This document shows positions 12,825 through 45,935 of a stretch of DNA of 64,000 bases, one piece after another. The position numbers and the translations under genes were made by a program. Origin of the DNA: Candidatus Zixiibacteriota bacterium (GTDB taxonomy: Bacteria; Zixibacteria; MSB-5A5; UM-FILTER-46-8); assembly GCA_014730345.1 (NCBI GenBank), contig WJIJ01000019.1, forward strand, positions 10,809 to 74,808, in the 5' to 3' direction. Within the stretch, counting starts at the first letter, position 1, and every line of letters begins with the position of its first letter. Under the pieces are notes generated by a model. It had not been told where the DNA came from. It was given only the letters and a program-made list of their open reading frames with translations, and ran no database searches.

Positions 12825-12833
12825 GAGGTAATT

Positions 12834-13301: not shown

Positions 13302-13352
13302 TAGTATACAACATTTATTATAGGAACCGTTGTAAATTGGGGAGTAAGGACA

Positions 13353-19367: not shown

Positions 19368-19772
19368 TCCGAATTCAGAATCCGTTGTTCGGGGATTAAT
19401 GGGGCGAAATATAGTTTCATGTCTACTAAAATTAGGCTTGACATCGAGCATGTAATTTGTAATTTATTTAGATTGTTTTAATGCCGCTGTAGAAAAGGTT
19501 TTGCCGCGATATTCGGATTTCGCCGCAGGGCTTATGCCGTTTAACTGTATATAATATAATCCGCGTTTCGATATCGGAATTTTGATAGTAATTAACAGAT
19601 CCAAACAAAGGGAAAACGGCTGATACGGCGGTTAAGCAGGTGGTGGTTTACCCGATATTAATCTGGCCACTGTTTTCTCTGACGCTTATGGAGAAGCGCA
19701 TACTCAGGGCTGTTGGCAAGGATGAAGAATAAGTAATTGCGCCGAATTAATCTAAGCCCTGCTGATCTAACC

Positions 19773-20861
19773 ATGAAGAATTGGAAACTACTTAAAACCA
19801 TCCCGGTTTTTATACTTGCCTTCTTATCAATACTTGTTTCTATCCAATTCGGGGGTTGCGGCAATCAAAGCATCAGTACTATTAAAAAGTACATAAAACA
19901 GGATAATTTCCAGGGAGCGAAATCTGAGTTAACCGAGCTTCTAAAGCGCGACCCGGTGAATAACGAAGCGCTGTTTCTCATGGGCAAGACCTGCGCCCAA
20001 TTGAAGGAATTCCGGTGTATGAATGAAAATTTCTCGCGGTCGTTGGAAATAGGCGACAGGTTCAGCAGGAAGATAGAGTACATAAAACTGGATAATTGGG
20101 CTTATTATTTTAATATGGCGATGGCATCGTATAGAATTCATGATTATGACAAGGCAATCACATTCGGTGAGTACGCGCTGGCTATAGCCGACACGGCGTA
20201 TGCTCATTTTTATTATCCTGATTTTGAAAATGTTACGCGAATGCAACTGGTTATGGGAGAATCATTCCGGGAGCTGGGGAGAATCGAGGATGCCAACAGG
20301 TATTACCGGTTGTGCCTGGGAAATAATCCGGACCAATTGCTCTGTTTAAACAGGCTGGCGGATTATTATTATTACAAAACGGCTTATGACAGCGCGTTGA
20401 TATTTTACCAGCGCATCGGCAGGATACGTCCTTATGATGAAAACGCTGCGGTACGGGCGGTTAAGTGTGTTGAAAATATTGATGGAGTGGAGGCCGCGAT
20501 CGAGATGGCTAACAGCAAGCTTTCCTCATCATCGAGAAGCGCGATATTAACGCGTTATATAGTTAATCTATACCTCCGGGAAGGAAATTTCAACGGTGCG
20601 GAATTCTGGCTGGAGAATGGTTATGTCGGAGAAAAGGATTATGATTATTACTTCATGCTGGGTCAGTGTAAATACAACCTTATGGATTTTGATAGCGCGA
20701 AGCAGTTGTTTGAAAAAGCTGTGGGTTTATCGCCCACTGGAAAAGAGGCGTGGGAATACCTCCAGATAATCTATGGCAATATTGGAGATATCGAAAAATA
20801 TGAATATGCACGGAGCCGGGTTAATTCTCTTCCGGGAAATGAGGATCAGTTAAAGGACTAA
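19773..20861 (+). CDS. TPR-repeat lipoprotein
   Basis: Start chosen at MKNWKLLKTIPVFILAFLSILVSIQFGGCG (lipobox-like FGGC). Multiple TPR-like helical repeats. Its stop overlaps the start of the next gene (TAATG). Confidence 0.6.
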   Translation: MKNWKLLKTIPVFILAFLSILVSIQFGGCGNQSISTIKKYIKQDNFQGAKSELTELLKRDPVNNEALFLMGKTCAQLKEFRCMNENFSRSLEIGDRFSRKIEYIKLDNWAYYFNMAMASYRIHDYDKAITFGEYALAIADTAYAHFYYPDFENVTRMQLVMGESFRELGRIEDANRYYRLCLGNNPDQLLCLNRLADYYYYKTAYDSALIFYQRIGRIRPYDENAAVRAVKCVENIDGVEAAIEMANSKLSSSSRSAILTRYIVNLYLREGNFNGAEFWLENGYVGEKDYDYYFMLGQCKYNLMDFDSAKQLFEKAVGLSPTGKEAWEYLQIIYGNIGDIEKYEYARSRVNSLPGNEDQLKD

Positions 20862-23800: not shown

Positions 23801-24283
23801 CTCCGCGACAATGACACCCTGTTCGCAGAGATAAGCATGCCTCCGCTGGGAAAGGACGAAGCTGACACTGTAACGGTTAGGCGATTGATTAGTTCGCTTG
23901 GCAACCATACTATAAACGCGCGGGCGGTTATTCCCCAGGGAGCGGCAGACAGGGATACCACTAACAATGAAAGGTCAATTATCGTGGTGGGAACCGAAGG
24001 GGACGTTATCGTCAAACCAAAGCCGTTTACTCCCAACGGCGATGGTTTTAATGACCGTTTGATTTTTGATTTAACCGCGTTGTACATAGATGAACCGCAG
24101 GTATTGATTTACTCGCTCGCGGGCGTAAAATTGAAGAAACTGGATGATGTATCCGCTGATAAGTTAATCTACTGGGATGGGAAGGATGATTCGGGACTGG
24201 ATCTCCCGCCCGGCGCGTATATGTTTATAGTAACGGACGGTTCTCGCAAACTGCATTCAGGTGTGATTTCCCTTGCAAGATAG
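20861..24283 (+). CDS. Large FG-GAP/VCBS-repeat adhesin-like protein with T9SS type-B (CHU_C, gliding-motility-associated) C-terminal domain
   Basis: 1140 aa. Signal peptide. Repeated FG-GAP-like Ca-binding loops (FNNDGRMDLIVAN, DYDGDGYLDLAG, DLDYDGDIDILVS, DFNNDRLMDIAV). The last about 90 aa contain PKPFTPNGDGFNDRLIF ... GAYMFIV, the hallmark of the type-B T9SS CTD. Confidence 0.72.
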   Translation: MDYNKQTSLLLRALRILVFSMLVIPLWVNNAAALDIISFYPANFSLGFEATDSIRVVFDAIIDDGSVDSTSFLVRGKTSGVYRGTYRVSADTAWFIPRWPSTFIWGDMITVTVTEDVRTPINDFLDRSVTWQFWVRPSGGARGATERWFDLNSFDPGKLIEVVDLGPDADSILHQPDLVSIGPKLGGDRVSYWLNEFSSDPDIPYRNPRAGFFDLDNQHSTDIEPGDFNNDGRMDLIVANEESDYFYFIKNTGGSIPQFDSVYYDIGGIHFNRFTTLDYDGDGYLDLAGISPGQNILAVFHNVPSGSERDFIVDWADSTSEFWPSDLISADFNNDRLMDIAVCARNDDGESIYIYINTGGLPGNPFISAVIQTGPNSITGVEAVNADGNQSPDLLLYSSLTTNWRAAVINNPMGPSTSIDTLQGIEPGIHGYPVDAKAADIEFSGGINLEYAVITEQNYLFQYISGYDNPIIIGPVVGMTLEESPPKLSLADLDYDGDIDILVSYESGNTIVGWRNPDTLENLVVVPDTVNFGIVEINTVDTLTYSIINAGNEIATLDDIYGDDLPFNVIDFQAGDTLAPGESSDITAVFQPPAYAIFEDTVVHVIGLRSLYRFEENVIYYGIGGKRSFGLDSDTIDFGVQCRDTVFQQLRIENSSPENNMELVIDSYRWNPAGQDRFRVRGVSLPDTIQAGEAITYFVDFFADSIFASYSAWLVFEHNATGTAGIDSVYMTGTVFCNIPPEADTVLFTISECSDTALYISSENYRDPDNLPQNLSIISVVGYPSWVSWDGDTTLIANPGPEVQVDEDTEYWFPYVITDGADTASSWIGLTLLDVENEPPEVGPQLFSILGDSTQNLSLEISDNDGGCLGFPDIATTYTNRSLQLLGVLQNYDTLIIVHPDQVPEGDVLVCSLMVSAFDGFDSSYTVIPVNILHNPNIKPDLRLIGLSAASQRVPVRDSVALTVITDVIQNSFPEEYVIELRDNDTLFAEISMPPLGKDEADTVTVRRLISSLGNHTINARAVIPQGAADRDTTNNERSIIVVGTEGDVIVKPKPFTPNGDGFNDRLIFDLTALYIDEPQVLIYSLAGVKLKKLDDVSADKLIYWDGKDDSGLDLPPGAYMFIVTDGSRKLHSGVISLAR

Positions 24284-24291
24284 ACAGGTAA

Positions 24292-26106
24292 ATGGTTTTT
24301 AAGATATTAAAATACGCAATGCTTATCTCTTCGTTCCTGCTGTTATTCACTCCGATCGTATATAGCCAGAATATGTTTGATGACAATCCGGCTGATATCG
24401 ATGGCGCCGTTGCCATCTACTCCAATCCGGCTCTTGGATACTTCGTGGAAAACAGGCTGGTACTGGGTATGGATGCCAGGTATCTGGGTCTTTTGGATAA
24501 CCAGCTTGGTTTAAGAAATCTCTATATTAACTATATCCCTTCATGGAGATTCCGGGGTTTCTCTTTTGGAGCGCAAACATTCAGCGCGGATATTTATAAT
24601 CAAACCACCTTTGGCGTTTCTTATTCCCGTAGTTTGCTGATAAAAAATCTGTCCGTTGGCGCTTCTGTTAACATATTCAACCGGGGTTTCGACAAGGATG
24701 ATTTCGATTTGATAGACAGCAATGACCCGGTTCTTGGTACCAGCCTGTCCAAAACCAATCTTGATATCACCATGGGAATAGCGTTCTTCCCGGTATCCAA
24801 TGTATGCGTTGGTTTTTCTGCTGAGCATATTAATCAACCTAATATAGCAATCGATGGCGACTATTCTCATCCTGCAATGATTTCGCTGGGCGCTAAAGCG
24901 TACTTCGGTAGATTGCATCCGTCTTTGTTTCTATCGAATCTCGAATGGTACGATAATTTAACCCTGTGGGACGCTGTAAAGCGCAACAAGTACCTGCTTA
25001 CATTCGGACTTGACTATGAATTATCAAACAGGTTTATAGTAGGTTCACAAATCAACCGCTCAGGTGCAGGCGTGGGAACAATGTTTAAGATTACTGATCT
25101 ACTCGGCGTGGATTACAGGTATGAATATCCGGTGACCGACATTAATAAATTCGCGTGGGGTTCACACCGGTTGAGCATGGTCTTCGAATTCGATTATGTA
25201 CCCGCTTACCGCCCGTCGGCCGGGATTGTTGAACCACCGGTACCCGTTTATTCTCCGCCCGAAATTGCGGTCAGCAACAGTTCCGACCTGTTTGCATTTT
25301 CGGATGTGGATAGCGTAACTATTCTGGAGCGGGAGATAAACCGCAGGCTCGATAAAGAAATCGACATGAACGAATTCGCGAAACTGAAACCTGCGGAATT
25401 GAACATAACCAGCGGAATCCTCCAGCTCGAAGACAGGTATTTCGCGGCCGATACCGTAGCGGTGAAAGATCCGCTTTCGGAGTTGAAGGGCGCTTATTCA
25501 ACATCTTACCGGGGCGCCTTGAATTCGATCGTTTACGGTATCAAGGAGAAAAGGACCTTGAAAGCCAGTCTTGTAGCGGGGCCCGATAACCTCCAACGGG
25601 CGAATTCCATGTATAACCTGATATCGGGATACGGCCAGCTATTCCCGGAGAACCTTGCAGTCGTAGTGCCGTACTACAGTATAACAGATACGACCGCGGG
25701 GGATATTAATATAATGGCTATGGAACCGGTCGAAAACAGGATTGATATTATTCCCGAGGAGATGAATTTTAAAATCCTGCGGCAGAACCATAGCGGCCAG
25801 GTTTCTGAATGGGCTTTGATGATAAATACTTACGAAGATATTACCGTGAAACTGTGGAATGGAGCCGGGAATCTCCCGGAAGAGATAAAATGGGATTTGC
25901 GTGATGATAGAGGGGAACTGATTAAAGAGGGACAGTATTATTATTATCTTGAATGGCTCGAACCGGACGGGAGTACGCGTCGGTCTTTCAGACAGCAACT
26001 TACAGTCTTGCGTATCCAGAAGAGATTGTTTATAGATGTAACTACGCAACCTTCGTATGACAGATTAAAAGAGGCAGATAAGATAGATTTAATTTTGGGT
26101 CGGTAA
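24292..26106 (+). CDS. PorP/SprF-family T9SS outer-membrane protein homologue with a long C-terminal extension
   Basis: 604 aa. Signal peptide then the IYSNPALGY motif typical of the PorP/SprF N-terminus. Predicted beta-strand-rich first half of about 300 aa. Located 8 nt downstream of a type-B CTD cargo gene, the canonical arrangement. The C-terminal 300 aa have no recognisable family. Confidence 0.5.
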   Translation: MVFKILKYAMLISSFLLLFTPIVYSQNMFDDNPADIDGAVAIYSNPALGYFVENRLVLGMDARYLGLLDNQLGLRNLYINYIPSWRFRGFSFGAQTFSADIYNQTTFGVSYSRSLLIKNLSVGASVNIFNRGFDKDDFDLIDSNDPVLGTSLSKTNLDITMGIAFFPVSNVCVGFSAEHINQPNIAIDGDYSHPAMISLGAKAYFGRLHPSLFLSNLEWYDNLTLWDAVKRNKYLLTFGLDYELSNRFIVGSQINRSGAGVGTMFKITDLLGVDYRYEYPVTDINKFAWGSHRLSMVFEFDYVPAYRPSAGIVEPPVPVYSPPEIAVSNSSDLFAFSDVDSVTILEREINRRLDKEIDMNEFAKLKPAELNITSGILQLEDRYFAADTVAVKDPLSELKGAYSTSYRGALNSIVYGIKEKRTLKASLVAGPDNLQRANSMYNLISGYGQLFPENLAVVVPYYSITDTTAGDINIMAMEPVENRIDIIPEEMNFKILRQNHSGQVSEWALMINTYEDITVKLWNGAGNLPEEIKWDLRDDRGELIKEGQYYYYLEWLEPDGSTRRSFRQQLTVLRIQKRLFIDVTTQPSYDRLKEADKIDLILGR

Positions 26107-26163
26107 CATCGATCCGATAAATAAAATAAGGGAAATACCGGATTACGGATAAGGAGCAGGTGA

Positions 26164-26940
26164 ATGAAAATCGGGATACTAACTATATTGATGACAGCGC
26201 TTTTATTTATGCCATTTTGCGTTTTGTTCGCGCAAACCGGTGATCAGACCGCGGATGAAAGCGCGTCAGCCATTGAGAATACAACTGTGCAGGATACTGT
26301 AGCGCAGGACTACAGCATCGGCGGAATCCTGGCAAGGGCCGGCAAGACAAGATATTTTATTTATGGAGTTCTTGCCCTGGGAGTATTTTTCATAATTTTT
26401 CAGTTTATATTGCTGACCCTCGACAGGAAAAGGTCGGCAGGATTGCGCAAATCGGATCTGGAAAAGATGCCTGTAGAGTCTATACGGAAACGCCTCGAGA
26501 CCGAACCGGATTCATCGGTCAACAGCGCGCTCCTGATGCTTTACCGGGTTTATTCCTCGTCCCGGGATATCAGTGCGTTGAATGAGGAAATAAATTCGTT
26601 TCTCGGGGGCATGAAATCGAGGTTTTCAACATTTACGAATTGGATGAATTTCCTGTCCGATGCCGCTGGAGCTCTGGGTTTATTGGGTACCGTTATTGGT
26701 ATGTTTACCACATTTTTCGGCGCGGATACCGGGTTTGATAACCGCAAAATACTTGACGGTATGGGTATCGCCCTTATCACCACCTTACTCGGCATTATCG
26801 TAAGTTTGATACTAAACCTGCTTACAGTACTGGTAACCAACTACCATAACCGGAATCTCGAATACGTTATGGAAAAATCGGATGAATTCCGCATTATCGC
26901 CGCCCGCAGCCAGAGAAGGGATGAAGCTCCCCGGGCGTAG
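26164..26940 (+). CDS. exbB: MotA/TolQ/ExbB-family proton channel
   Basis: 258 aa. Signal peptide plus three TM helices. Diagnostic LGLLGTVIGMFTTF and GIALITTLLGIIVSLILN motifs. Strong RBS AAGGAG. Confidence 0.8.
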   Translation: MKIGILTILMTALLFMPFCVLFAQTGDQTADESASAIENTTVQDTVAQDYSIGGILARAGKTRYFIYGVLALGVFFIIFQFILLTLDRKRSAGLRKSDLEKMPVESIRKRLETEPDSSVNSALLMLYRVYSSSRDISALNEEINSFLGGMKSRFSTFTNWMNFLSDAAGALGLLGTVIGMFTTFFGADTGFDNRKILDGMGIALITTLLGIIVSLILNLLTVLVTNYHNRNLEYVMEKSDEFRIIAARSQRRDEAPRA

Positions 26941-26958
26941 AATGGAGATTAAAGCAAA

Positions 26959-27339
26959 ATGTTGCTGAGATTGGTAGACATAACCCTTATCCTGCTTTTC
27001 GGATTTATATCCATTAGTTCTATAGAACCACGCACCAATATACGCCTGCCCGAAGCGGAATATGCCGAATTCGACTCCCAAAAACGGAGAGCGGTTGAAA
27101 TTATCGGGATAGATAACCAGGGACGTATCCTTATCAGCGAAGAGAGATACCGGGTGGATAGAGAACTCCTGCTCCCCTACCTTATTCAAAAACGAGAACA
27201 ATTCGATTCGCTGAGAGTAAAAATCAGGGCAGAACGCGACGCGGAGATCATAGATGTCAAAAAGGTCGCATTGCTCTGTGATTCCCTGAGAATACCCAAG
27301 AGCATCGAGGTGCGTATGCCGGAGGGAAGCAGGCGATGA
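26959..27339 (+). CDS. exbD: ExbD/TolR-family protein
   Basis: 126 aa. N-terminal RLVDITLILLFGFI TM typical of ExbD. ATGA overlap with the next gene. Confidence 0.6.
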   Translation: MLLRLVDITLILLFGFISISSIEPRTNIRLPEAEYAEFDSQKRRAVEIIGIDNQGRILISEERYRVDRELLLPYLIQKREQFDSLRVKIRAERDAEIIDVKKVALLCDSLRIPKSIEVRMPEGSRR

Positions 27340-27731
27340 AACGCAAAGGGATAATAATCCGATTAATTGACGTTGTTTTGATAATCCTCCTCGGATTTTT
27401 AGCCATTTCCGATTTCCAGGCTAAAACGCCCATCGACCTTCCCGATTTAACTCCGGATGAGGAGATTGTCAAGGAACCGGAACTCGAGGAAATTCCGATA
27501 GCGGAAGTGGTAATTGACAACGAAAACAAGTTTATTTTTTCCGTCAACCAGGCTGACACAATTATCCTCGACAACAAGGAAGACCTTGAATATACCATAT
27601 ATGATTTTTATTCGCGGGATACATCTATGGTAGTGCTAATCCTGCCCCGGGACAGCTCCGAGGTGCAGGCCACCGTGGATGTAATCGATATATGCGAAAA
27701 ATATGAAATTCCCAGAAATCTGACATTTTAA
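27336..27731 (+). CDS. exbD: ExbD/TolR-family protein (second copy)
   Basis: 131 aa. N-terminal RLIDVVLIILLGFL TM. Directly follows the first ExbD-like gene. Confidence 0.6.
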   Translation: MKRKGIIIRLIDVVLIILLGFLAISDFQAKTPIDLPDLTPDEEIVKEPELEEIPIAEVVIDNENKFIFSVNQADTIILDNKEDLEYTIYDFYSRDTSMVVLILPRDSSEVQATVDVIDICEKYEIPRNLTF

Positions 27732-28673
27732 ATGTACTACGCAAAAAACGAAAATAAGATAAAGCTAATATCGGCGATAATCACGGTGATTATACTGCCG
27801 CTTGTTTACTTCGCCGTAAAAAACCAGACCCCATTCGTGTTTTTACGGCAGATGGCCGAAGAATCCTCCAGGTGGATAACAATTATGAGGCCCGAACCGC
27901 CGCCTGAACCGCCTGATGTGCGCGATGAGCTTTTACGCAGGCTGGAGAGTTTAAAGCAGAGAACCCAGCAAGCGCTCCTTGAGCGAATGGAACGATTGAC
28001 AGAGGAGTTTCAGAAAAATCCGGAACGTATCCAGATTGATAATCGCCCGCAATTCGCACTTCAGCAGGACAGGCTTCGGGACGCAATCGACCGCGTAGGT
28101 TCCGGAAAGCGCGCCAACAGCAAGATACGATCCGGGGGTATAGATTTCACTCCCGGGGGAAATTATAATTTCGGAAACAGCAGTCAGGGCGGCAGTTTTT
28201 CCGGCAAGCGGGAGGGTGTTGCCCGCAAAGATGTCAATGCCGTTACCCCGGGCGATATGAACTGGGCGGAATTCGGTGATGTTAATCTCGACGATGATAT
28301 CTCCAGCGACTATGATAGATTATTGCAGTGGGTTAAAAACCATCCGAAATCTCTTCCAAATGTTTTCATTAACTTGATGGAAGGCGAACGGACTGATCCC
28401 CAGACGATAATTAGGCATAAACACGCCGATATATATCTGTTAATTAATGACCGGGCCAAGCTGGTTAATATCGCTGTTGTAAACAGCGACAGCGTGGCTG
28501 TTATGATCGACCATGGCCTGGCATTGGAAATACGCAAACTTGACCTTGGCGAGGTTTTCCGGAGGAACGAGGACTCGATCATCGGTCTCGATGTCAATCC
28601 CGCTCAAACCCGCAGGAGTTTATACGAGCCGTGGTATACGGCGTTTCGATCATGGTGGGAAGGAATAAGATGA
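27732..28673 (+). CDS. TonB-like protein: N-terminal TM anchor, proline-rich spacer (RPEPPPEPPD), non-canonical C-terminal domain
   Basis: 313 aa. TM at residues about 12-32 and a Pro/Glu-rich segment as in TonB. The C-terminal 120 aa do not resemble the TonB_C fold by eye. Positioned after exbB-exbD-exbD. Confidence 0.45.
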   Translation: MYYAKNENKIKLISAIITVIILPLVYFAVKNQTPFVFLRQMAEESSRWITIMRPEPPPEPPDVRDELLRRLESLKQRTQQALLERMERLTEEFQKNPERIQIDNRPQFALQQDRLRDAIDRVGSGKRANSKIRSGGIDFTPGGNYNFGNSSQGGSFSGKREGVARKDVNAVTPGDMNWAEFGDVNLDDDISSDYDRLLQWVKNHPKSLPNVFINLMEGERTDPQTIIRHKHADIYLLINDRAKLVNIAVVNSDSVAVMIDHGLALEIRKLDLGEVFRRNEDSIIGLDVNPAQTRRSLYEPWYTAFRSWWEGIR

Positions 28674-30256
28674 AAAGGAAGCGTATCGAATTCTATATAT
28701 TGTTGGCAGGTCTAATCATCATGGTTGCCTGTTCAGGGTCTCCAAAAGAGGATACATTAAAACCGGTCGGCGCGCCTGTTACGATTGACACCGTTACTGT
28801 TTATGTCCCGATTCCCCCCGGTATCGATACTACAACAGCGATAGAAGCATACAAACTTGCCGATAAAAGCTTCGTTTCATTAAGCGAGGACTCACTCGCG
28901 GATGCGCTTTATGATGAAGGACATCAGTTGAAAATTGAGGTCGACTCGATCTGGAGCGAATATGAAAAAGCGCTTAACGAGAAAGATTCAGTTGACAATG
29001 ATACAACTGGAATGGGAATGACTATGCGCGCGCTTGAACTTCATGACCAGTATGACAGGTATTATCCCTCGCAAGAAGCATCTCCGGAAGCTATTGCCAA
29101 TATACCAGAGGCCAGATTTCGGCGGCTGGTAACCAATTACGAACGCGCGCGGGATATCATGGAACAGGTTATCCTTATAAATCCATATAATGACCTGTAT
29201 CGAGGATTCCTGGCCACCCTGTATTCCCGGCTTGCCCAGCTCCACCGGTCCCGCGATGACCTTGAAAAATCTATAGAGTTGTATGAAAACCTTATACGTC
29301 TCAACAAGGGATACTTCCGCAACTATTACAACGTTGCCCAGGTTTATGAAGACGCCGGCGATTATCGAAAGGCCTATGAAAACTACAGGAAGGCTGAGGA
29401 GATACTGTTGGAGACCTGGCATTTTGAAACCACGGACACAAACGCGTTCAGGGTCAAGGCATGCCGTCTCGATGATTTTCCGCTTATTGAATATGCCACT
29501 TACATTTTCAGCCAGGCGCTTATGCAGGAGAGAATGTGGCGGGTCGAGAACGCGATTGTCGATTACCGCAGGCTCCGTGAAGTTTCCCGTATGGCCGGTG
29601 ACCGGGAGTATGAACAGTACGCAATAGATGGTATCGCTGAACTTCAATGGGATTACGGCGATATAGCCGCCAGGCAAAAATGGCTCGAATTCTGGGATGT
29701 ACGGCAGAATGATGAAGACCGGGCGGCTTTGCTTTTAAGGGATTTACTGCCGCGTTTGGATGATCCCGATGTTAGAATAATGGCCCAATTCGAGATGGGA
29801 GTTCTTGAATGGACTTCTCTAAACCAGCGTGAGCAGGCTATAACAAGGATAGGGATACTTGTCGATGAGATTGAGCTCGATGAAAATGGCGCTGTTGTCG
29901 ACACGTCATATTACCGGATTATAAACAGCTATGGGTCGATGTGTTTCACCCTCGGAAAGGAATACGAAGATACGGATAAAGTAAAATCTCTCCAATACTA
30001 CCTTGAATCGACAAAATACGAATGGGACCATCGCGGTTCAGGTTTGATTAACTGCATGATTAAACTTCAAAACAGACCGGAGGAAGTTGTTAGACTCGGG
30101 CAGATGGCGGTTGATTATACCGGACAGTTGAACGAGCAGGAATTGAAATTGCTTTTCCAGTTAATGATTGATTCGTACAAAAAAATTGGCGATTTCAGGA
30201 GCGCGCGTATGTATTATTCGAGATGGCGGGACTTGCAAAACATGAGTGGAGGTTAA
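28670..30256 (+). CDS. TPR-repeat lipoprotein
   Basis: Start MKRKRIEFYILLAGLIIMVACSGS (lipobox VAC) overlaps the TonB-like stop (ATGA). Long array of TPR-like helices. Confidence 0.6.
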   Translation: MKRKRIEFYILLAGLIIMVACSGSPKEDTLKPVGAPVTIDTVTVYVPIPPGIDTTTAIEAYKLADKSFVSLSEDSLADALYDEGHQLKIEVDSIWSEYEKALNEKDSVDNDTTGMGMTMRALELHDQYDRYYPSQEASPEAIANIPEARFRRLVTNYERARDIMEQVILINPYNDLYRGFLATLYSRLAQLHRSRDDLEKSIELYENLIRLNKGYFRNYYNVAQVYEDAGDYRKAYENYRKAEEILLETWHFETTDTNAFRVKACRLDDFPLIEYATYIFSQALMQERMWRVENAIVDYRRLREVSRMAGDREYEQYAIDGIAELQWDYGDIAARQKWLEFWDVRQNDEDRAALLLRDLLPRLDDPDVRIMAQFEMGVLEWTSLNQREQAITRIGILVDEIELDENGAVVDTSYYRIINSYGSMCFTLGKEYEDTDKVKSLQYYLESTKYEWDHRGSGLINCMIKLQNRPEEVVRLGQMAVDYTGQLNEQELKLLFQLMIDSYKKIGDFRSARMYYSRWRDLQNMSGG

Positions 30257-30268
30257 AGAGAAGCGCTT

Positions 30269-30994
30269 ATGCCGGGTTATAATAAAGTAATGATTGCCAT
30301 ACTGGGAATAATCATGTTCCCGATGGCTATATTTGCCCAACCGTCGGTTGTTCCCCATAAAGTTGATAAAGCGGTGATAACTGATAAGGTACTTATACGG
30401 GAAATTGCCGCCGAGATGTATATCACCGTTGATATTGAAACCGTGGAGAAGATGGAGATTATTGATATCACCGGGGATGGTTTCGGTAAAAATGATATCG
30501 CTAAAGTTTTTCCTTCAGAGCGATTCTTCCAGCTAAGCGAAATATCCGATGAACTCGAAGAGGAGATGGGCAGTTGGAAAAGGGAGGCCGCCGGTGGTGT
30601 TGTATTTGAGAACCTGCCCGCCGATGAATTCCGTGAGATTTACAACGGGCGGAAACTACCCCAATATCTTTTGCTGGCCAATATCGGCTATGCCCTGGAA
30701 CAGATTTACGGCGACAGTTTGCCCATTGAGCTCTACTACAGCAAGGACACAACAGGAATCATATTCCATTACTGGGGTTACGTGGAAGACTCGCTGGTTT
30801 ATCGTCCCGGGAAAAGGGGAGATGTAGCCAGGACTACGGCTTATGATTTGATGTATGTGTTGAAGAATGATACCACGGTTGTGGTGGATACGACGATGTA
30901 CGATATAATGTTCATTTATAAAACACTGACGGACACGGTCTACCTGCCCGGTCCTGGAAAATTACCACAGGGGAGAGGGCCAATAAATGAATAA
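30269..30994 (+). CDS. Hypothetical secreted protein
   Basis: 241 aa. N-terminal signal peptide. No recognisable domain. Tightly packed in the array and overlaps the next gene by 8 nt. Confidence 0.35.
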   Translation: MPGYNKVMIAILGIIMFPMAIFAQPSVVPHKVDKAVITDKVLIREIAAEMYITVDIETVEKMEIIDITGDGFGKNDIAKVFPSERFFQLSEISDELEEEMGSWKREAAGGVVFENLPADEFREIYNGRKLPQYLLLANIGYALEQIYGDSLPIELYYSKDTTGIIFHYWGYVEDSLVYRPGKRGDVARTTAYDLMYVLKNDTTVVVDTTMYDIMFIYKTLTDTVYLPGPGKLPQGRGPINE

Positions 30995-32033
30995 GAGCTT
31001 TTCATTTAATAGCCCTTTGGCTCTGTTATTGGCAGGTATTTGTTTTATCTTCTACGCCGCGTCTATAAAGATCGCTGTTGCGGGAGAGGTGCATGTTCAA
31101 ATCGCTGAAATCAGTGGAAATGAGTTGATGGTAACCTGGAGCAAAGAGCAGTACAGCGGCGGGAAGGTGTCCATTTTAGTATCTGATATAGGATCCGGTC
31201 AATCCTTTAAATATAATGAAGGCGGTGATAAAGGATTTTTTATAGTTAATAACCTTAAATACGGTTTTGATTATAAGGTGACTGTCGAAATCGATATTAA
31301 TGATGATAACTTCGGCAAAACATTCAATTTAATTAAATCAAAACCATTTGAGGAAACTGTGTTTGTGGCTCAGATGAAATTATTGGTTTATAGATATGAA
31401 GTTACCAACAAGCAATATAAAGAATTTTGCGACTCAACCGGCAGAAACTATCCCCCGCCGGTTCCCTTTACCGGATTGGGGGACTATTTCACTACCCAGG
31501 GCGAATATCCGGTGGTCAAAGTTAGCTGGTACGATGCTGTAGATTTCTGCAACTGGAGAAGTAAACAACTGGGACTGACAGAATGCTATGATGATGATTA
31601 TCAATTGATACCCGGTTCTGATGGATTCCGCCTGCCGCGTATGGACGAATGGATGGATTTAGCATTTCCGGACATGGGAACACCTGGCAGAGTTTCGATC
31701 TATTCGGGAGCTTTTAATAAGGGTAGCGTTAAATCCACTTCAAGGTTCACCGAAAAAGTCGGTACCTCATCGGAGCCGAACGCGTACGGTATTTATGATA
31801 TATTCGGAAATGTGTGGGAATGGTGCCAGGATGATTATATTCCCAAAATTGAGCAGGATTTCGATGTGTCCGCCGCGGAAATGAAAAAGAATCTAAAACC
31901 GGTTTGTGGAGGAAGCTGGGCCGACAATCCCGCCAGTCTCGATTTTAAAATTAGAACCTTTAATTATCCCGATAACAGGTATTCCACGGTCGGTTTCCGT
32001 CCGGTGAGGAACACTGGTTTCGAAGTTAACTAA
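30987..32033 (+). CDS. FGE-sulfatase (SUMF1/formylglycine-generating-enzyme-like) domain protein
   Basis: 348 aa. Signal peptide and N-terminal beta-rich region of about 120 aa. FGE-sulfatase blocks EVTNKQYKEF, YPVVKVSWYDAVDFCNWRS, GFRLPRMDEWMD, GNVWEWCQDDY, GGSW...STVGFRPV. Same family as GldJ/GldK/PorK. Confidence 0.75.
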   Translation: MNKSFSFNSPLALLLAGICFIFYAASIKIAVAGEVHVQIAEISGNELMVTWSKEQYSGGKVSILVSDIGSGQSFKYNEGGDKGFFIVNNLKYGFDYKVTVEIDINDDNFGKTFNLIKSKPFEETVFVAQMKLLVYRYEVTNKQYKEFCDSTGRNYPPPVPFTGLGDYFTTQGEYPVVKVSWYDAVDFCNWRSKQLGLTECYDDDYQLIPGSDGFRLPRMDEWMDLAFPDMGTPGRVSIYSGAFNKGSVKSTSRFTEKVGTSSEPNAYGIYDIFGNVWEWCQDDYIPKIEQDFDVSAAEMKKNLKPVCGGSWADNPASLDFKIRTFNYPDNRYSTVGFRPVRNTGFEVN

Positions 32034-32052
32034 AAAGGGAGTTGAGTGCAGC

Positions 32053-32901
32053 TTGAATAAAATATTCTACGTTATTCTAATCTTAGTGTTAAGCCCTTTA
32101 ACAACTTTTGGACAGCCGCCGGTAATGCCAACCGAAGTTCCAGACGGTATGGTACTCGTGCCCGGGGGACCATTTTACTTCCTTAATACTCCCGACGGAT
32201 ACGGTTTAACGAAATATCCCGGCAATCCGGCGCGTTTGGACAGCTTTTACATAGATATTACCGAGGTGACCAATTCCCAGTATGCTGAATTTTTAAACTC
32301 CGGCAATGAAGAGTTTTACCATGATGATATGAATATCAGCAGGGATTCAATGGGCATTTTCAAATCTGATTTTGGAATGGAAGAGCACCCGGTGGTATCG
32401 GTCAGCTACAATGGAGCGAACGCCTTTGCCCGATGGGCGGGCAAAAGGCTTCCCACCGAGATGGAATGGGAAAAGGCGGCAAGAGGAAGCGCCGGCGGGG
32501 AAGATGAAAACGCTATTGGTTTCGGATATATGTTCCCCTGGGGAAATTCAGAACCGGATTCTTTGATAGCCAATTTTATCAATGGAGCGCCCTACGGATA
32601 CCCGGAGACGACCCCGGTCGGTTACTACGATGGCGAAATACATGATGGTTTTCCAACAGAGGATAATTCCTCTATATATGGCGCTTATGACATGGCCGGC
32701 AATGTATGGGAATGGACCAGCGGAAAACTGATACCATTCGCCGGGGAAACTGTCCCGGACGACGTTATTGAATTGAGGGTAGTACGCGGGGGAAGCTTCA
32801 AGGATGCCGCCATGTCTTTAAGAACCACGACTCGCTCGGGTTACAGTGATTCCACCCACATGCATAATATCGGTTTCCGGTGCGTGAAAGATTTAAGATA
32901 A
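32053..32901 (+). CDS. FGE-sulfatase domain protein (second paralogue; TTG start)
   Basis: 282 aa. Signal peptide. Complete domain: MVLVPGGPF, EVTNSQYAEF, HPVVSVSYNGANAFARWAGKRLPTEMEWEKAARG, FPWGN, GNVWEWTSG, VVRGGSF...RTTTRSGY...NIGFRCV. Confidence 0.85.
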   Translation: MNKIFYVILILVLSPLTTFGQPPVMPTEVPDGMVLVPGGPFYFLNTPDGYGLTKYPGNPARLDSFYIDITEVTNSQYAEFLNSGNEEFYHDDMNISRDSMGIFKSDFGMEEHPVVSVSYNGANAFARWAGKRLPTEMEWEKAARGSAGGEDENAIGFGYMFPWGNSEPDSLIANFINGAPYGYPETTPVGYYDGEIHDGFPTEDNSSIYGAYDMAGNVWEWTSGKLIPFAGETVPDDVIELRVVRGGSFKDAAMSLRTTTRSGYSDSTHMHNIGFRCVKDLR

Positions 32902-32909
32902 TCCTGCTT

Positions 32910-34841
32910 ATGTTTAGCAAAAGTCCTGCCGGGCATGTTATATCCCTGTTTATATTTCTCTCATCGTTGGTTCTAATAGGTTGCGGCGGTAAACCAAAAG
33001 ATAATTATACCGCTGGGGCTGACAAAATTCGTAAGCATATTACACTGACCGGGAAACAGATCAGCGACCATTCCGTCCGGCTTGATTGGGAGTTTAAAAG
33101 GGATTTTGATTCATCATCTATCTCAATTGAGATGAGGACCGGGGATGAGCTGTATTATAAAACTATTGCCGAATCCCTGAATATGTCCATATCGACATAT
33201 ACTTATGATGAAATAAAGCCCGGAGAGATATATTATTTCAGGATCAGGGAGAGTTCCAGAACGGATTTCGGGAGTATGAGCGATCCATGGATTCTGCAGT
33301 CGCTATTCTCTGCTCCAATATTGAAAGAGCCGGAAGTTTTAACTGACCATGAGGTGCGACTTGGATGGGAAGTAAATAATCCGATGGCTATTTCGGTCGA
33401 GATCGAAAGGCAGGATATTGGACTTTTTAAGCGGGTGGCAACAGTGAACGCTTCCGAGAGTAGCTGGATGGATACAACCCTCGCGTCAAATCGTGATTAT
33501 AAATATCGCGTAAGGTGTAAAGGCGAGAGGTACTATTCCTCTTACTCTGATATCGTCAACGTAAACACCCAACTGCCTCCGCCATCCGACCTGTCAATTG
33601 AAATTATTGACGGAGATAAAGTAGTGTTAAGCTGGATAGATAAAAGCGGTTGGGCTGACACCTTTTATGTTTATCGGAGGAAGATAAACGAAGACTTTCG
33701 ACATATCCAAACCCTTCCCAGTAATATGAACCGCTTTTCAGACTTCGGTCTCGAATATAACACTTCTTATCTTTACAAGCTAAAAGCCAGGTCAGCCGGA
33801 AATTTCTCGGGTTTCTCCGAGCCCGAGGACATAACCATTAAAATTAAGAAACTGGAAAAACCTGAAGCGAAACTTGTAGGCAAAAATGCTCTCGAGCTTA
33901 AGTGGAAAAAGCCAGAGTCCTTTGTAAAGGGTTACAGGATAATCAGGAAAGAAAAGGGAATAGTAGAGGATAAAATCATTGCGCAATTACCCCCGGACAG
34001 CATTTCATTTGTTGATACAACTATCGCCGCCGGGACCCGATATATCTATATCGTCAATCCGCTTTATTCTGGCGATTTGCCGGATTTATCCAACCGGGTG
34101 GAGTATTACATCCCGGATATTTCCTCGGAAATGGTGTTTATTGGCTCCGGTTCGGTTAACCGCCGTATCGATAGTCTCGGCAGTTGGTACGGCGATAAGT
34201 ATAAAAAGGTTGAAGTAAACGCGTTTTACATATCCCGGCACGAGATAACCAACCGCGAATACCAATTGTTTATCGATGAAACCGGGCATAAACCCCCTCC
34301 ATCAGCTATGTTCGAGAACATGGACAATTATTTTTACGATTATCCCGATTATCCTGTCGTAATGGTGAACTGGTATGACGCCGTGGAATATTGCAATTGG
34401 CTGAGTAAACGCATGGGTTTAGAACCGGCTTATGGAAAAAACTACAAATTTATTCAAAGCGCCAATGGATATCGTCTACCCCGCGAGAACCAATTTATTA
34501 AAATATATCAGGATATGTATGGGTTAAACGGCGTCAGCGAGGAAAACGGAAATTTTTTTGGAAACAGGGATGGTTATCCGACAACTTCGCCGGCGGGAAA
34601 ATTAACCGGCGGCGGGAAAGCGTATCCGGTCTGGGATATTGTCGGCAATGTTGCTGAATGGCTCAACGACAAAGTTATGGGAAGGGGACAGGAAATGCTG
34701 GAACTCCGCAAGATAATTGGAGGCGACTGGTCGACTTCGCAGGATGACTTTGACATCGAATTCACACTGACCCTTCTGCCATCGAACAGGTTCAATCATG
34801 TCGGGTTCCGGGTGATTCTGCCCGGTGATTATGATAAATAG
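32910..34841 (+). CDS. Lipoprotein with FN3-like repeats fused to a C-terminal FGE-sulfatase domain (third paralogue)
   Basis: Start at MFSKSPAG...LVLIGCGG (lipobox LIGC). Three to four about 90-aa repeats with a VRLxWE pattern (FN3-like). C-terminal EITNREYQLF, YPVVMVNWYDAVEYCNWLSKRMG, GYRLPRENQF, GNVAEWLND, IIGGDWS...HVGFRVI. Confidence 0.75.
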   Translation: MFSKSPAGHVISLFIFLSSLVLIGCGGKPKDNYTAGADKIRKHITLTGKQISDHSVRLDWEFKRDFDSSSISIEMRTGDELYYKTIAESLNMSISTYTYDEIKPGEIYYFRIRESSRTDFGSMSDPWILQSLFSAPILKEPEVLTDHEVRLGWEVNNPMAISVEIERQDIGLFKRVATVNASESSWMDTTLASNRDYKYRVRCKGERYYSSYSDIVNVNTQLPPPSDLSIEIIDGDKVVLSWIDKSGWADTFYVYRRKINEDFRHIQTLPSNMNRFSDFGLEYNTSYLYKLKARSAGNFSGFSEPEDITIKIKKLEKPEAKLVGKNALELKWKKPESFVKGYRIIRKEKGIVEDKIIAQLPPDSISFVDTTIAAGTRYIYIVNPLYSGDLPDLSNRVEYYIPDISSEMVFIGSGSVNRRIDSLGSWYGDKYKKVEVNAFYISRHEITNREYQLFIDETGHKPPPSAMFENMDNYFYDYPDYPVVMVNWYDAVEYCNWLSKRMGLEPAYGKNYKFIQSANGYRLPRENQFIKIYQDMYGLNGVSEENGNFFGNRDGYPTTSPAGKLTGGGKAYPVWDIVGNVAEWLNDKVMGRGQEMLELRKIIGGDWSTSQDDFDIEFTLTLLPSNRFNHVGFRVILPGDYDK

Positions 34842-34992: not shown

Positions 34993-37608
34993 ATGCCGAA
35001 ATCATTCGAGATATTCCGCGTTAAAGCAACTTTACCCGAAGAGCTTTCCAAGCTTTCTGAAATAGCATACAATCTATACTGGTCATGGAACCACGAGGCG
35101 ATTGACCTTTACCGGCGCCTTGACAGGGATCTATGGGATGACTGCGAACATAATCCTGTGCGCATGTTGGGTATGGTCAAGCAGGATGTCCTTGCCCAGG
35201 TAGCCGGCGATGAGGGTTTTATGGCCCAAATGCGCAGGGTTTACCAGGATCTGCAGGAGCACCTGACCCGGAAAACTTGGTTTGAAATTAATTACGGAAA
35301 ATTCGACACCCCGAAAATTGGCTATTTCTCCATGGAATATGGTTTGACCGAATGCCTGCATATCTATTCCGGCGGCCTCGGAATCCTCGCCGGGGATCAT
35401 TTAAAATCCGCAAGCGAACTCGGAATTCCCCTTGTGGGGGTGGGTCTGCTCTATCAACAGGGTTATTTCAGGCAATATCTCAATGCCGATGGTTGGCAAC
35501 AGGAGACATATCCGGACAATGATTTCTATAACCTGCCCCTGACACCCGAACTCGACGACGATGGTTCCCCTTTGCTTGTTGGTGTTCCATTTCCCGGGCG
35601 CACGGTTTACTGCCGTATCTGGCGAATCCAGGTGGGGCGGATACCTCTTTATTTATTGGATACCAATACTCCGGAAAACCAGTACCGCGACCGGAAGATA
35701 ACTTATCAGCTTTACGGCGGCGATGATGAAACCCGGATTCAGCAGGAGCTGGTGCTCGGTGTTGGCGGTATGCGGGCATTGCGGGAGTTGGATATTCACG
35801 TTCATGTCTGTCACATGAACGAGGGCCATGCGGCGTTTCTGGGATTCGAGCGCATGCGGCACAGGAAAGAAGTTGATAGATTAACCACCGAAGCGGCGTA
35901 CGAAGTAGTGAAGGCGGGAACTGTTTTCACTACACACACTCCGGTCCCCGCCGGAATCGATATTTTTAAACCCGCGTTAGTGGAAAAATATATTAACCGC
36001 ATGCTTGATGGGGCTAAAATAGACTTCAGCGATTTCATGTCACTGGGGCGTAAGAATCCAAAAAGCCAGGATGAACCTTTAAACATGGCTTTAATGGCAT
36101 TGCGGACAACATCTTTTGCCAACGGCGTAAGCAAACTCCATGGCGAAGTCTCACGTAAGATGTGGCAGTCCATCTGGCCTAATATCCCTTTACATGAGGT
36201 GCCAATCGGTCATGTAACCAACGGCGTCCATACTCACTCATGGATATCCAAGGAGATGTCGGAGTTGTTCACCCGGTACCTGGGGCCTAACTGGATAAAA
36301 AACCCTCACGACACCGGTATATGGAAATCGGTGGAACGTATTCCCGATGTCGAGTTATGGCGGATACATGAGAGAAGGCGCGAGAGGTTGGTGGCTTTTA
36401 CCCGCAGGCAGTTGATAGACCAGCTCAAGCGCAGGGGCGCCAGCGCGAGAGAAATCGACAGCGCTTACGAATCACTCAATCCCGAAGCCCTCACCATCGG
36501 TTTTGCCAGGAGGTTTGCCACTTATAAGAGAGCAACCCTGCTGTTAAAAGACCCCGCGAGGCTAAAAAGCATCCTCACCAATCCGGAAAGACCGGTGCAG
36601 ATAATCATTGCGGGCAAAGCGCACCCGCGGGACAACGAGGGCAAGGAATTGATACGCCAATTAATTCATTTTGCCAGGCAGGAGAATGTCCGCAAACATT
36701 TTGTTTTTATTGAGAATTACGATATGAATGTAGCCCGTTATCTCGTGGAGGGCGTTGATATATGGCTTAATAATCCGCGGCGTCCTATGGAAGCGAGCGG
36801 CACCAGCGGCATGAAAGTACTCGCCAACGGCGGATTGAACTTCAGTATTCTCGATGGCTGGTGGGTGGAAGGTTATTCAATCGATACCGGCTGGGCCATA
36901 GGCGCCGGTGAAGAATATGACGACCCCAGTTACCAGGATGAAGTCGAAAGCAAGAGCCTTTATCATGTTCTCGAAAGCGATATCGTTCCTCTTTTCTATG
37001 ATATAGGAAGCGACAGCATCCCCCGCAGGTGGATATCAAAAGTGAAAACCTCAATGGCTACCTTGTCGCAGGTCTTTGGCGCGAACCGGATGGTCAAAGA
37101 ATATACCGATAGATTCTATATGCCTGCTTATACCAATTGGAAAAATCTCTCAGCGAATAAATACGAACGCGCCCGCAAACTGATGGAATGGAAGGAATAT
37201 ATCCAGGGGCAATGGCCGATGGTGCATATTATTAAATCCAAGATGGCAAAGAAAGAAACCGAGGTCGGAACAGCCCTCAAAGTTACAGCCGTAGTCTACC
37301 TGGGTTCCCTTAAAGATGAAGATGTTAAAGTACAGATATACAGCGGACATCTCGATTCGGATTACAATGTCATCGACAGTTCGGTAGCTGACATGAAAAG
37401 CGTAGATAATCCCCAGGAAGGTCTGTATATTTTCGAGGGCTATATTCCCTGCGATGAAAGCGGTTTATTCGGTTATTCCGTCCGGGTTATGCCCCACCAT
37501 CCCGATATGACCGACCATTTTGATCTGGAAATGACCCGCTGGATCGACGAGTCGGTTAAAAAACCATTCGCTAAGGAAGCGGAAGCGATCTTAAACGCCG
37601 TTTATTAA
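34993..37608 (+). CDS. glgP: Alpha-glucan phosphorylase (GT35; maltodextrin/glycogen phosphorylase family, archaeal/bacterial short type)
   Basis: 871 aa. N-terminal WSWNHEAIDLYRRLD and YFSMEYGLTE...GGLGILAGDHLKSASE blocks. PLP-lysine region (GTSGMKVLANGG). Confidence 0.85.
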   Translation: MPKSFEIFRVKATLPEELSKLSEIAYNLYWSWNHEAIDLYRRLDRDLWDDCEHNPVRMLGMVKQDVLAQVAGDEGFMAQMRRVYQDLQEHLTRKTWFEINYGKFDTPKIGYFSMEYGLTECLHIYSGGLGILAGDHLKSASELGIPLVGVGLLYQQGYFRQYLNADGWQQETYPDNDFYNLPLTPELDDDGSPLLVGVPFPGRTVYCRIWRIQVGRIPLYLLDTNTPENQYRDRKITYQLYGGDDETRIQQELVLGVGGMRALRELDIHVHVCHMNEGHAAFLGFERMRHRKEVDRLTTEAAYEVVKAGTVFTTHTPVPAGIDIFKPALVEKYINRMLDGAKIDFSDFMSLGRKNPKSQDEPLNMALMALRTTSFANGVSKLHGEVSRKMWQSIWPNIPLHEVPIGHVTNGVHTHSWISKEMSELFTRYLGPNWIKNPHDTGIWKSVERIPDVELWRIHERRRERLVAFTRRQLIDQLKRRGASAREIDSAYESLNPEALTIGFARRFATYKRATLLLKDPARLKSILTNPERPVQIIIAGKAHPRDNEGKELIRQLIHFARQENVRKHFVFIENYDMNVARYLVEGVDIWLNNPRRPMEASGTSGMKVLANGGLNFSILDGWWVEGYSIDTGWAIGAGEEYDDPSYQDEVESKSLYHVLESDIVPLFYDIGSDSIPRRWISKVKTSMATLSQVFGANRMVKEYTDRFYMPAYTNWKNLSANKYERARKLMEWKEYIQGQWPMVHIIKSKMAKKETEVGTALKVTAVVYLGSLKDEDVKVQIYSGHLDSDYNVIDSSVADMKSVDNPQEGLYIFEGYIPCDESGLFGYSVRVMPHHPDMTDHFDLEMTRWIDESVKKPFAKEAEAILNAVY

Positions 37609-45785: not shown

Positions 45786-45935
45786 TTCAGTTCACCTCCG
45801 CTTCAGCTATAAATCGCGCCATTAAAAACTACTTGATTATTCGGGGGAATTTTGTATATTGAAAAGGCGTAGTAGCGTAGATATTTAGGACATAATGTAT
45901 TGGTAGATATAAAATTAGAAAATTCGGAGGTTGTC

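Follow-up and report, generated by a model that had tools for sequence, protein, structure and literature searches.

The stretch of DNA considered here (the window, 64 kb of a Zixibacteria contig) contains three consecutive genes on its forward (+) strand, FGE1, FGE2 and FGE3, each of which encodes a domain of the FGE-sulfatase family (Pfam PF03781), the family of the formylglycine-generating enzyme (FGE). They were found in a profile search of the open reading frames (ORFs) of the window with Pfam, and all three lie far above the PF03781 cut-off of 23.3 bits. FGE1 (30987-32033) encodes 348 amino acids (aa) and matches the profile with an E-value of 6.9e-30 and 105 bits, over profile positions 38-255 of 255. 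FGE2 (32053-32901), with a TTG start and 282 aa, matches with E 4.3e-48 and 164.6 bits over positions 3-255, and FGE3 (32910-34841), with 643 aa from the ATG used by NCBI, matches with E 6.5e-25 and 88.7 bits over positions 4-254. An alternative GTG start for FGE3 at 32880 would give 653 aa. All three proteins match, at 100% identity, NCBI entries from a Zixibacteria metagenome-assembled genome (MAG); a separate look-up by exact sequence gave no record for the proteins of the window. The initial annotation of this locus described three tandem genes, each with a complete SUMF1-like domain. The observation is confirmed, apart from the completeness of the domain in FGE1, which is shortened at its N-terminus: an alignment shows that the FGE1 of the window is without some 25 residues with which the domain begins in its orthologues, and the first β-strands of the fold may be missing or replaced.

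The three proteins have distinct architectures. FGE2 is a signal-like sequence followed by a minimal FGE-fold domain (32143-32889). FGE1 has a signal-like sequence, an N-terminal β-rich module resembling a fibronectin type III (FN3) domain, and the shortened FGE-fold domain (31383-32009), which carries a 21-aa insertion after the CNW helix. FGE3 has four FN3-like units (33054-33275, 33333-33545, 33600-33815 and 33870-34079) and an FGE-fold domain (34128-34817) with a 21-aa insertion as in FGE1. In the numbering of the 643-aa form, the four units cover residues 49-122, 142-212, 231-302 and 321-390; they were delineated by an iterated hidden Markov model (HMM) seeded on the Pfam fn3 match, which is to unit 3 (E 2.4e-17). 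The same procedure finds four units in three FGE3 orthologues and six in another. The FN3 stalk, which had been described as belonging to one of the genes, is real in FGE3, and FN3-type modules are not confined to this protein, the β-rich module of FGE1 occupying the place where its orthologues have one to three FN3 units. FGE1 and FGE3 are sister paralogues, and their common insertion is also found in TvpA. FGE2 is the most conserved of the three, with a mean identity of 47.6% among orthologues, compared to 32-33% for FGE1 and FGE3.

Export signals and the lipobox were judged by eye. All three proteins begin with hydrophobic, signal-like sequences, namely MNKSFSFNSPLALLLAGICFIFYAASIKIAVA in FGE1, (M)NKIFYVILILVLSPLTTFGQ in FGE2 and MFSKSPAGHVISLFIFLSSLVLIGC in FGE3. 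The last of these includes a lipobox, LIGC, with its cysteine at Cys25 (32982-32984); FGE1 and FGE2 have no lipobox at their N-termini. Read in this way, the proteins would be periplasmic, and the proposal that all three are secreted and that the third is a lipoprotein holds for the proteins of the window. It is worth adding that the NCBI record of FGE2 begins at Met25 (258 aa) and so does not include the signal-like sequence (32053-32127). The longer form from the TTG at 32053 is probably correct, given that AAGGGAG is found 11 nucleotides (nt) upstream of the TTG and that all FGE2 orthologues have signal-like N-termini.

The two active-site cysteines of FGE (Cys336 and Cys341 in the human enzyme) are copper ligands, which bind Cu(I). 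Neither is present in the proteins described here. In a HMMER comparison of FGE2 with the FGE of Streptomyces coelicolor (2q17), the loop RGGSYLCHDSYCNRYR is aligned with RGGSFKDAAMSLR, such that the catalytic loop LCHDSYC is represented by KDAAM. In FGE1, compared to human FGE (2afy), there is a gap at Cys336 and a serine at Cys341. The catalytic cysteine pair and the copper ligands are thus not conserved relative to either the human or the S. coelicolor enzyme. In MAFFT alignments of first 14 and then 17 sequences, none of the 17 orthologues, from six loci, has a cysteine at either catalytic position, and in each of the three paralogue groups every sequence has its catalytic-site loop shortened by three to five residues. 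The alignments lead us to conclude that FGE1, FGE2 and FGE3 are not FGE-type enzymes and that the active site has been lost, in agreement with the initial suggestion that the fold is not used here for FGE chemistry. The same suggestion noted that there is no sulfatase nearby, and indeed the sulfatase family PF00884 has no match in any gene-like ORF of at least 150 aa in the window.

FGE2 does contain a single cysteine, Cys277 (32881-32883), in a C-terminal GFRC motif that is conserved in all FGE2 orthologues. It corresponds to Cys365 of human FGE. The position of the partner of this residue, Cys218, is not cysteine in FGE2, and the same is true of S. coelicolor FGE. Cys277 may be a buried relic. 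It was considered as an attachment site of the type of GldK Cys343, and this idea was set aside, since S. coelicolor FGE has the same unpaired cysteine.

Among proteins of known structure, the best sequence match of FGE2 is SUMF2, also called pFGE (1y4j), with 88.7 bits, compared to 64.9 for PorK. The best match of FGE1 is TvpA (2y3c), with 48.4 bits (PorK 39.4), and FGE3 matches SUMF1 with 40.2 bits and PorK with 21. By these scores PorK is more distant from the three proteins than are FGE, pFGE and TvpA, and in terms of sequence families they are members of the FGE-sulfatase superfamily only.

The FGE genes do not stand alone. They are the last three genes of a 12-gene operon (19737-34841, + strand), in which every junction is either an overlap or a gap of at most 57 nt, so that their placement at the 3' end of a coupled array, as initially noted, is borne out by tight spacing throughout. 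FGE1 overlaps the preceding gene, Y241, by 8 nt, the stop codon of Y241 overlapping the start of FGE1 (ATGAATAA), with GGGAGAGGG upstream. The gap between FGE1 and FGE2 is 19 nt, with the AAGGGAG sequence upstream of FGE2, and that between FGE2 and FGE3 is 8 nt. FGE3 is followed by a 151-nt AT-rich spacer. A scan of the operon for promoters and terminators gave counts that were not usefully above those of shuffled sequences.

The other nine genes, all on the + strand, are as follows. The first (19737-20861) encodes a 374-aa protein matching Pfam TPR families; it overlaps the next gene by 1 nt, and a TPR gene is found at the same position in locus L015 (loci from other genomes are referred to by such numbers). 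The second (20861-24283) encodes a putative surface adhesin or cargo protein of 1140 aa, with Big_5, FG-GAP repeats (FG-GAP_3, E 8e-16), Ig-like domains and a C-terminal domain resembling the CHU_C/type-B sorting domain of the T9SS (type IX secretion system). This last match falls below threshold (CHU_C 26.5 bits against a cut-off of 27; TIGR04131 27.4 against 35), and the weak CHU_C match recurs in the adhesin orthologues, always with a PorP-like gene adjoining. The same adhesin architecture is found upstream of the PorP-like gene in L003, L005, L008, L009, L010, L013 and L015. The third gene (24292-26106) encodes a 604-aa PorP/SprF-like outer-membrane barrel, which matches Pfam PorP_SprF (PF11751) over residues 99-298 with 61.6 bits (cut-off 22.3) and the corresponding NCBIfam model TIGR03519 with 65.7 bits against a cut-off of 90.55. 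It has a C-terminal extension of about 300 aa, for which no sequence relative was found in the PDB, and its orthologues have 601-670 aa in all loci. It contains one cysteine in the whole protein, and no C-terminal Cys-x-Cys.

The next three genes resemble a proton-driven motor. They encode a 258-aa MotA/TolQ/ExbB-family proton channel (26164-26940; Pfam MotA_ExbB, E 3.6e-13), here called ExbB, and two ExbD/TolR-like proteins, ExbD1 (26959-27339, 126 aa) and ExbD2 (27336-27731, 131 aa), both matching Pfam ExbD and both having an aspartate in the transmembrane helix (RLVDITL and RLIDVVL respectively). Reciprocal best matches show ExbD2 to be distinct from ExbD1 in every locus. They are followed by X313 (27732-28673), which has an N-terminal membrane anchor, a proline-rich (EPPPEPP) charged linker and a conserved C-terminal domain, and which has no match in Pfam, NCBIfam or PDB sequences; TonB was considered for X313 and rejected, given the lack of such matches. 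Next is a TPR lipoprotein (28670-30256, about 528 aa from M14; Pfam TPR_2 and others) with the lipobox MVAC, conserved in all loci, and finally Y241 (30269-30994), a secreted protein of 241 aa without a Pfam or NCBIfam family, which serves as a marker of the operon.

The Y241 family has 106 representatives at 50% identity among 1.84e9 proteins, and no structural neighbour was found for it in the PDB. The AlphaFold2 (AF2) model of Y241 has a predicted local distance difference test (pLDDT) score of 80.5, residues 30-180 being confident. The tail (residues 190-241) contains the most conserved motifs of the family (DTT..YD..YIYKT), and yet has a pLDDT of only 40-59 in the monomer model, which raises the possibility that it may fold only upon binding a partner. 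Ten long family members were scanned for fusions to FGE or other known domains, and none was informative.

Related loci were found by exact-sequence look-up of FGE2 homologues and by pattern scans with Y241. FGE genes directly follow Y241 in seven lineages (the window, L001/L002, L003/L004, L005-L007, L008, L017 and L018/L019), across which the identity of Y241 falls to as low as 24-35%. The order Y241-FGE1-FGE2-FGE3 is kept in five of the six lineages that could be read to the end (the window, L001, L005, L008 and L018); L003/L004 has no FGE1, and the L017 contig ends after the first FGE gene. The order of the core genes from the adhesin to Y241 is identical wherever the contig extends upstream (the window, L001, L003, L005 and L008), while in L017 and L018 only TPR-Y241 is preserved upstream of the FGE genes. 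All five of the FGE2 homologues with at least 42% identity that were looked up lie in the operon, and the next homologue, P0019 (40%), is outside it, between unrelated metabolic genes. A scan of metagenomes yielded only two short extra loci, and an alignment of 47 sequences was too diverse for a pattern search.

Given the fold, the loss of the active site and the conserved place in an operon of envelope components, the reading that we favour, with moderate confidence, is that FGE1-FGE3 are non-catalytic periplasmic docking or scaffold subunits of an ExbBD-driven adhesin apparatus, working in the manner of GldJ and GldK without being members of those families. There is precedent for such a use. 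PorK, GldK and GldJ are FGE folds without catalytic cysteines, which act as docking hubs or track beside PorP-family carriers and a 5:2 motor (PMC12421860, PMC12635249). In PorK, the substrate groove is reused for docking of PorN, and a 150-residue insertion, InsH (R81-P230), serves for self-association into a ring (PMC12421860). In Flavobacterium, the type-B adhesin SprB is borne by SprF, a carrier of the PorP family (PMC12635249, Liu et al. 2025). The C-terminal Cys-x-Cys tail of SprF is disulfide-bonded to Cys343 of GldK, and GldK, GldJ and GldN form a moving track driven by GldLM, of which the PorKN ring is a miniature version (PMC12635249).

By analogy, the ExbB/ExbD1/ExbD2 stator in the inner membrane would turn proton flow into force, which would be carried across the periplasm by X313, the TPR lipoprotein and Y241 to the C-terminal domain, presumed periplasmic, of the PorP/SprF-like barrel, and the barrel would hold the FG-GAP/Ig adhesin at the cell surface. 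In the Zixibacteria branch, FGE1-FGE3 would form a heteromeric periplasmic scaffold in association with these products. That the assembly is heteromeric is probable, because the order of the three genes is fixed and the architectures of their products are distinct. FGE3 would stand on a four-FN3 stalk of about 15 nm, lipid-anchored in the lineage of the window, and the former substrate groove may be the binding site for one of the operon partners, as the PorK groove is for PorN. A bolder version of this proposal is that the operon is a proton-driven machine for moving or loading a surface adhesin in Zixibacteria and related candidate phyla of the FCB group (Fibrobacterota, Chlorobiota and Bacteroidota), in which the PorP/SprF-like carrier holds a type-B-like adhesin, the ExbB/ExbD stator replaces GldL/GldM and, in the Zixibacteria branch, the three dead FGE folds form a hub or track under the outer membrane, like GldJ/GldK. 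We regard this as speculative, and more probably wrong than right.

Several observations weigh against the docking reading, or against a close likeness to GldJ and GldK. The GldK/PorK model TIGR03525 gives 86.2, 101.2 and 51.5 bits for FGE1, FGE2 and FGE3, against a cut-off of 350, and matches only in its C-terminal half. The GldJ models (TIGR03524/TIGR03530) give 34.7, 42.9 and 25.8 bits, against cut-offs of 458 and 383. Membership of either family is thereby ruled out, and the comparison with GldK, PorK and GldJ proposed as a check thus came out negative (26-101 bits against cut-offs of 350 and 458). The InsH insertion of PorK is absent. In FGE2 the 253 matched positions of the Pfam profile are covered by 249 residues, and in FGE3 the 251 matched positions by 230; with domains of approximately the length of the profile there is no room in these two proteins for an insertion of 150 aa. 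A lipobox is found in FGE3 from only two of the six orthologues examined (LIGC in the window and LSGC in the closest orthologue, in L001), the other four having plain hydrophobic N-termini, so that the lipid anchor noted initially is not conserved across the family. Disulfide attachment of the type formed between the invariant Cys343 of GldK and the Cys-x-Cys tail of SprF or PorG cannot apply as such, since the PorP-like protein has no such tail. No PorN/GldN partner was detected for FGE1-FGE3, and nothing pointed to a partner of the PorN or TonB type among the core proteins, Y241 having no Pfam or NCBIfam family and PDB sequence searches with X313 and with the extension of the PorP-like protein giving no relatives. 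The AF2 model of FGE3 is of low confidence (pLDDT 60.7). It resembles the structures of FGE, pFGE, PvdO and TvpA and of multi-FN3 fibronectin fragments, which accords with the evidence from sequence and adds little to it.

Finally, the core operon is also found without FGE genes after Y241, in L009 (a KSB1 MAG), L011, L013 and L015. In L010 (Calditrichaceae) and L016 the contigs end too early to judge. The core operon thus occurs with no FGE gene beside it in a sister clade that includes KSB1, loci related to Calditrichaceae and others, which implies that the FGE proteins are accessory or replaceable, a feature of the locus that the initial annotation had missed. The loci lacking FGE genes form one clade when the TPR lipoprotein sequences are placed in a neighbour-joining tree. 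Such a pattern suggests a single gain or a single loss and not shuffling at random; the FGE trio is thus an addition, stable and specific to a lineage, to a core machine of wider occurrence. Overall, the direction of the initial annotation was right, in that a fold without FGE function lies in the operon of an envelope machine with a PorP/SprF-like barrel, a type-B-like adhesin and ExbB/ExbD. The resemblance to GldJ, GldK and PorK was nevertheless overstated, because several of their defining features (family membership, InsH, a PorN/GldN partner) were looked for and not found.

Two further observations concern the loci that have no FGE genes. In the FGE-less clade, the ExbB homologue has 408-556 aa (L009:5084-6349, L010:5013-6293, L011:4784-6454, L015:5191-6417, L016:486-1721), compared to 248-291 aa in the FGE-bearing loci. 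The long ExbB has a C-terminal extension, which in L011 contains a Big_1 Ig-like domain; L013 is an exception (275-334 aa). It is conceivable that the ExbB extension takes the place of the FGE proteins. A complete chromosome of the Rhodothermales (Bacteroidota) has a rearranged and distant variant of the operon without an FGE domain (L012:6307-17321), in which the order is a 1181-aa Ig-rich protein, a Y241-like protein, ExbD, a 352-aa protein, ExbD, a 518-aa TPR541-like protein, an 848-aa protein of unknown type, and ExbB.

There are other ways to account for the FGE genes. One is that FGE1-FGE3 are lectin-like modules and not scaffold subunits. Binding of a small ligand, of a peptide or of a glycan (peptidoglycan, capsule or a substrate polymer) would then tether or position the motor complex, or sense a cue in the envelope or outside the cell. 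The FGE fold is a subclass of the C-type lectin fold. The closest protein of known structure to FGE1, TvpA, is a variable ligand-binding protein, and its insertion after the CNW helix recurs in FGE1 and FGE3. FN3 stalks are frequent in binding proteins, and an accessory status with respect to the core operon would suit an adaptor or a sensor. On the other hand, no ligand can be inferred, the fixed order of three paralogues favours a complex over independent receptors, and a diversity-generating retroelement is not evident, no reverse-transcriptase domain having turned up in general Pfam scans of the ORFs of the window. We consider this explanation unlikely.

An enzymatic role with chemistry other than formylglycine formation, for example a PvdO-like or sulfoxide-synthase-like enzyme that modifies the adhesin or an envelope component in the periplasm, is more doubtful still. 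It is suggested by the NCBI name 'SUMF1/EgtB/PvdO family nonheme iron enzyme', by weak NCBIfam matches to EgtB, SenA, OvoA and PvdO, and by the case of PvdO itself, a periplasmic FGE fold that likewise lacks the FGE cysteines. The scores are however far from the family cut-offs. PvdO (NF051459) gives 37.9, 40.1 and 45.1 bits for FGE1, FGE2 and FGE3 against 500, and EgtB gives 41, 83 and 22 bits against 360, a range of 22-83 bits against cut-offs of 360-500; the EgtB/OvoA/SenA synthase models together give 21-83 bits against 360-420. Membership of PvdO or EgtB is ruled out on this basis. The DinB-like N-terminal domain, which forms the iron site in EgtB and OvoA, has no Pfam match in FGE1-FGE3, the FGE active-site loop is deleted, and three diverged paralogues with FN3 stalks would be atypical of enzymes.

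It is very improbable that the FGE genes are an independent unit that merely happens to lie downstream of the ExbBD/PorP operon. The core operon does exist without them, and proteins with FGE-sulfatase domains are very common in these phyla (7951 matches). Against this, seven diverged lineages have the genes at the same place and in the same orientation, with start-stop overlaps with Y241, the order FGE1-FGE2-FGE3 is preserved as described above, and among the homologues looked up the FGE2 orthologue group is found only in the context of the operon. Lastly, that the three are genuine formylglycine-generating enzymes for sulfatases encoded elsewhere in the genome can be practically discounted and is rejected here, since it has in its favour only the Pfam family name and annotations of homologues such as 'formylglycine-generating enzyme required for sulfatase activity', and it is refuted, for the known Cu/Cys mechanism, by the loss of both copper-binding cysteines and the shortening of the loop in all 17 orthologues, with no sulfatase gene in the 64 kb.

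Elsewhere in the window there are four proteins with a T9SS type-A C-terminal domain (Por_Secre_tail), at 15486-19367, 43403-45727, 45900-48884 and 60993-63260; these are two S8 proteases, a MAM/NIDO protein and a sortilin/BNR protein. Their presence implies that the organism has a T9SS, and no core T9SS gene is found in the window. A signalling set (10491-15113) lies about 4.6 kb upstream of the operon, separated from it by one of the S8 protease genes alone; it is made up of a PAS histidine kinase, a single-domain response regulator and a response-regulator-GGDEF-EAL protein, which could be a means of cyclic di-GMP control of the surface apparatus. After the 151-nt spacer, on the same strand as the operon, is an alpha-glucan phosphorylase-like gene (34993-37608; DUF3417 and Phosphorylase). 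It is probably unrelated, since it is not conserved beside the operon in other loci.

The interest of this locus lies in its relation to recent work on Bacteroidota, which showed in 2025 that the FGE folds of GldJ, GldK and PorK are a moving track or hub that passes the force of a motor to PorP-family carriers, both for gliding and for type IX secretion, an enzyme fold having been repurposed. Here the same ingredients recur outside Bacteroidota, namely dead FGE folds, a PorP/SprF-like carrier, a type-B-like adhesin and a 5:2-type proton motor. If these parts act together, the operon would represent a second case, whether independent or ancestral, of the FGE fold serving as a component of a mechanical device, and would provide a comparative handle on the origin of the T9SS/gliding energy chain from Ton/Tol-like motors. 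The machine proposed in the bolder version above would be either an evolutionary relative of that chain or an independent reinvention of it. The phenomenon is of a known kind, a repurposed FGE fold in an envelope machine, and what is new is its variant in the Zixibacteria operon, together with the Y241 family and a conserved operon of which our literature searches found no description. Nothing on an ExbBD-PorP operon, or on gliding or a T9SS in Zixibacteria or Calditrichota, came up in the same searches, and a 2025 survey of periplasmic force transducers reports other new motor-linked families and not this one (PMC12204202).

It remains to compare the operon and its FGE-fold proteins with known systems. 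SUMF2/pFGE, a non-catalytic paralogue of human FGE, resembles FGE2 in that its FGE fold is minimal and no longer has the cysteine pair. It differs in being a eukaryotic protein of the endoplasmic reticulum lumen that is tied to sulfatase maturation, in having no operon context, and in that its loop is not shortened. TvpA, a variable protein of Treponema denticola, resembles FGE1 in the insertion after the CNW helix and uses an FGE-type lectin fold purely for binding, but it is the target of a diversity-generating retroelement.

In the Ton system (ExbB-ExbD-TonB), as in the operon described here, proteins of the MotA/ExbB and ExbD families, with a transmembrane aspartate in each ExbD, are followed by an anchored proline-rich protein and a TPR protein. 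Here, however, X313 does not match the TonB C-terminal domain and has no transmembrane histidine, there is no TonB-dependent receptor, and the outer-membrane partner is a PorP/SprF-like barrel. The Agl-Glt machinery of Myxococcus consists of the TolQ-like AglR with two different TolR-like proteins (AglQ/AglS), TonB-like and TPR proteins, outer-membrane barrels and a surface adhesin. The operon follows the same logic, with one channel protein and two heterologous ExbD/TolR paralogues, an anchored proline-rich protein, a TPR lipoprotein, a barrel and an adhesin in both. No Glt homologues were detected, and the operon differs from Agl-Glt in having a T9SS type-B-like signal on the adhesin and a PorP-family carrier, and we know of no FGE-fold proteins in Agl-Glt.

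GldJ is a non-catalytic FGE fold which, with its paralogue GldK, forms an assembly of several FGE folds under the outer membrane, as FGE1-FGE3 may do. It has different insertions, and the proteins of the window are from outside Bacteroidota, with no gld genes nearby. PorK and GldK share with FGE1-FGE3 an FGE fold without catalytic cysteines and, if the docking role proposed here is right, its use for docking. They are periplasmic, as the window proteins are predicted to be, and lie alongside a PorP-family barrel and a proton-driven motor of the 5:2 type, in association with carriers of type-B adhesins (PMC12421860, PMC12635249). They differ in having PorL/PorM as the motor in place of ExbB/ExbD, and in having a lipid anchor, which is not conserved in the window family; this family adds FN3 stalks instead of InsH. 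The carriers also differ, SprF having the Cys-x-Cys tail that links it to Cys343 of GldK, where the PorP-like protein has instead a domain of about 300 aa, taken to be periplasmic. Taken as a whole, the operon has the same classes of part as Flavobacterium gliding. Its adhesin is type-B-like, its carrier is PorP-like, its proton motor belongs to the MotA/ExbB-ExbD class, and it too has dead FGE folds.

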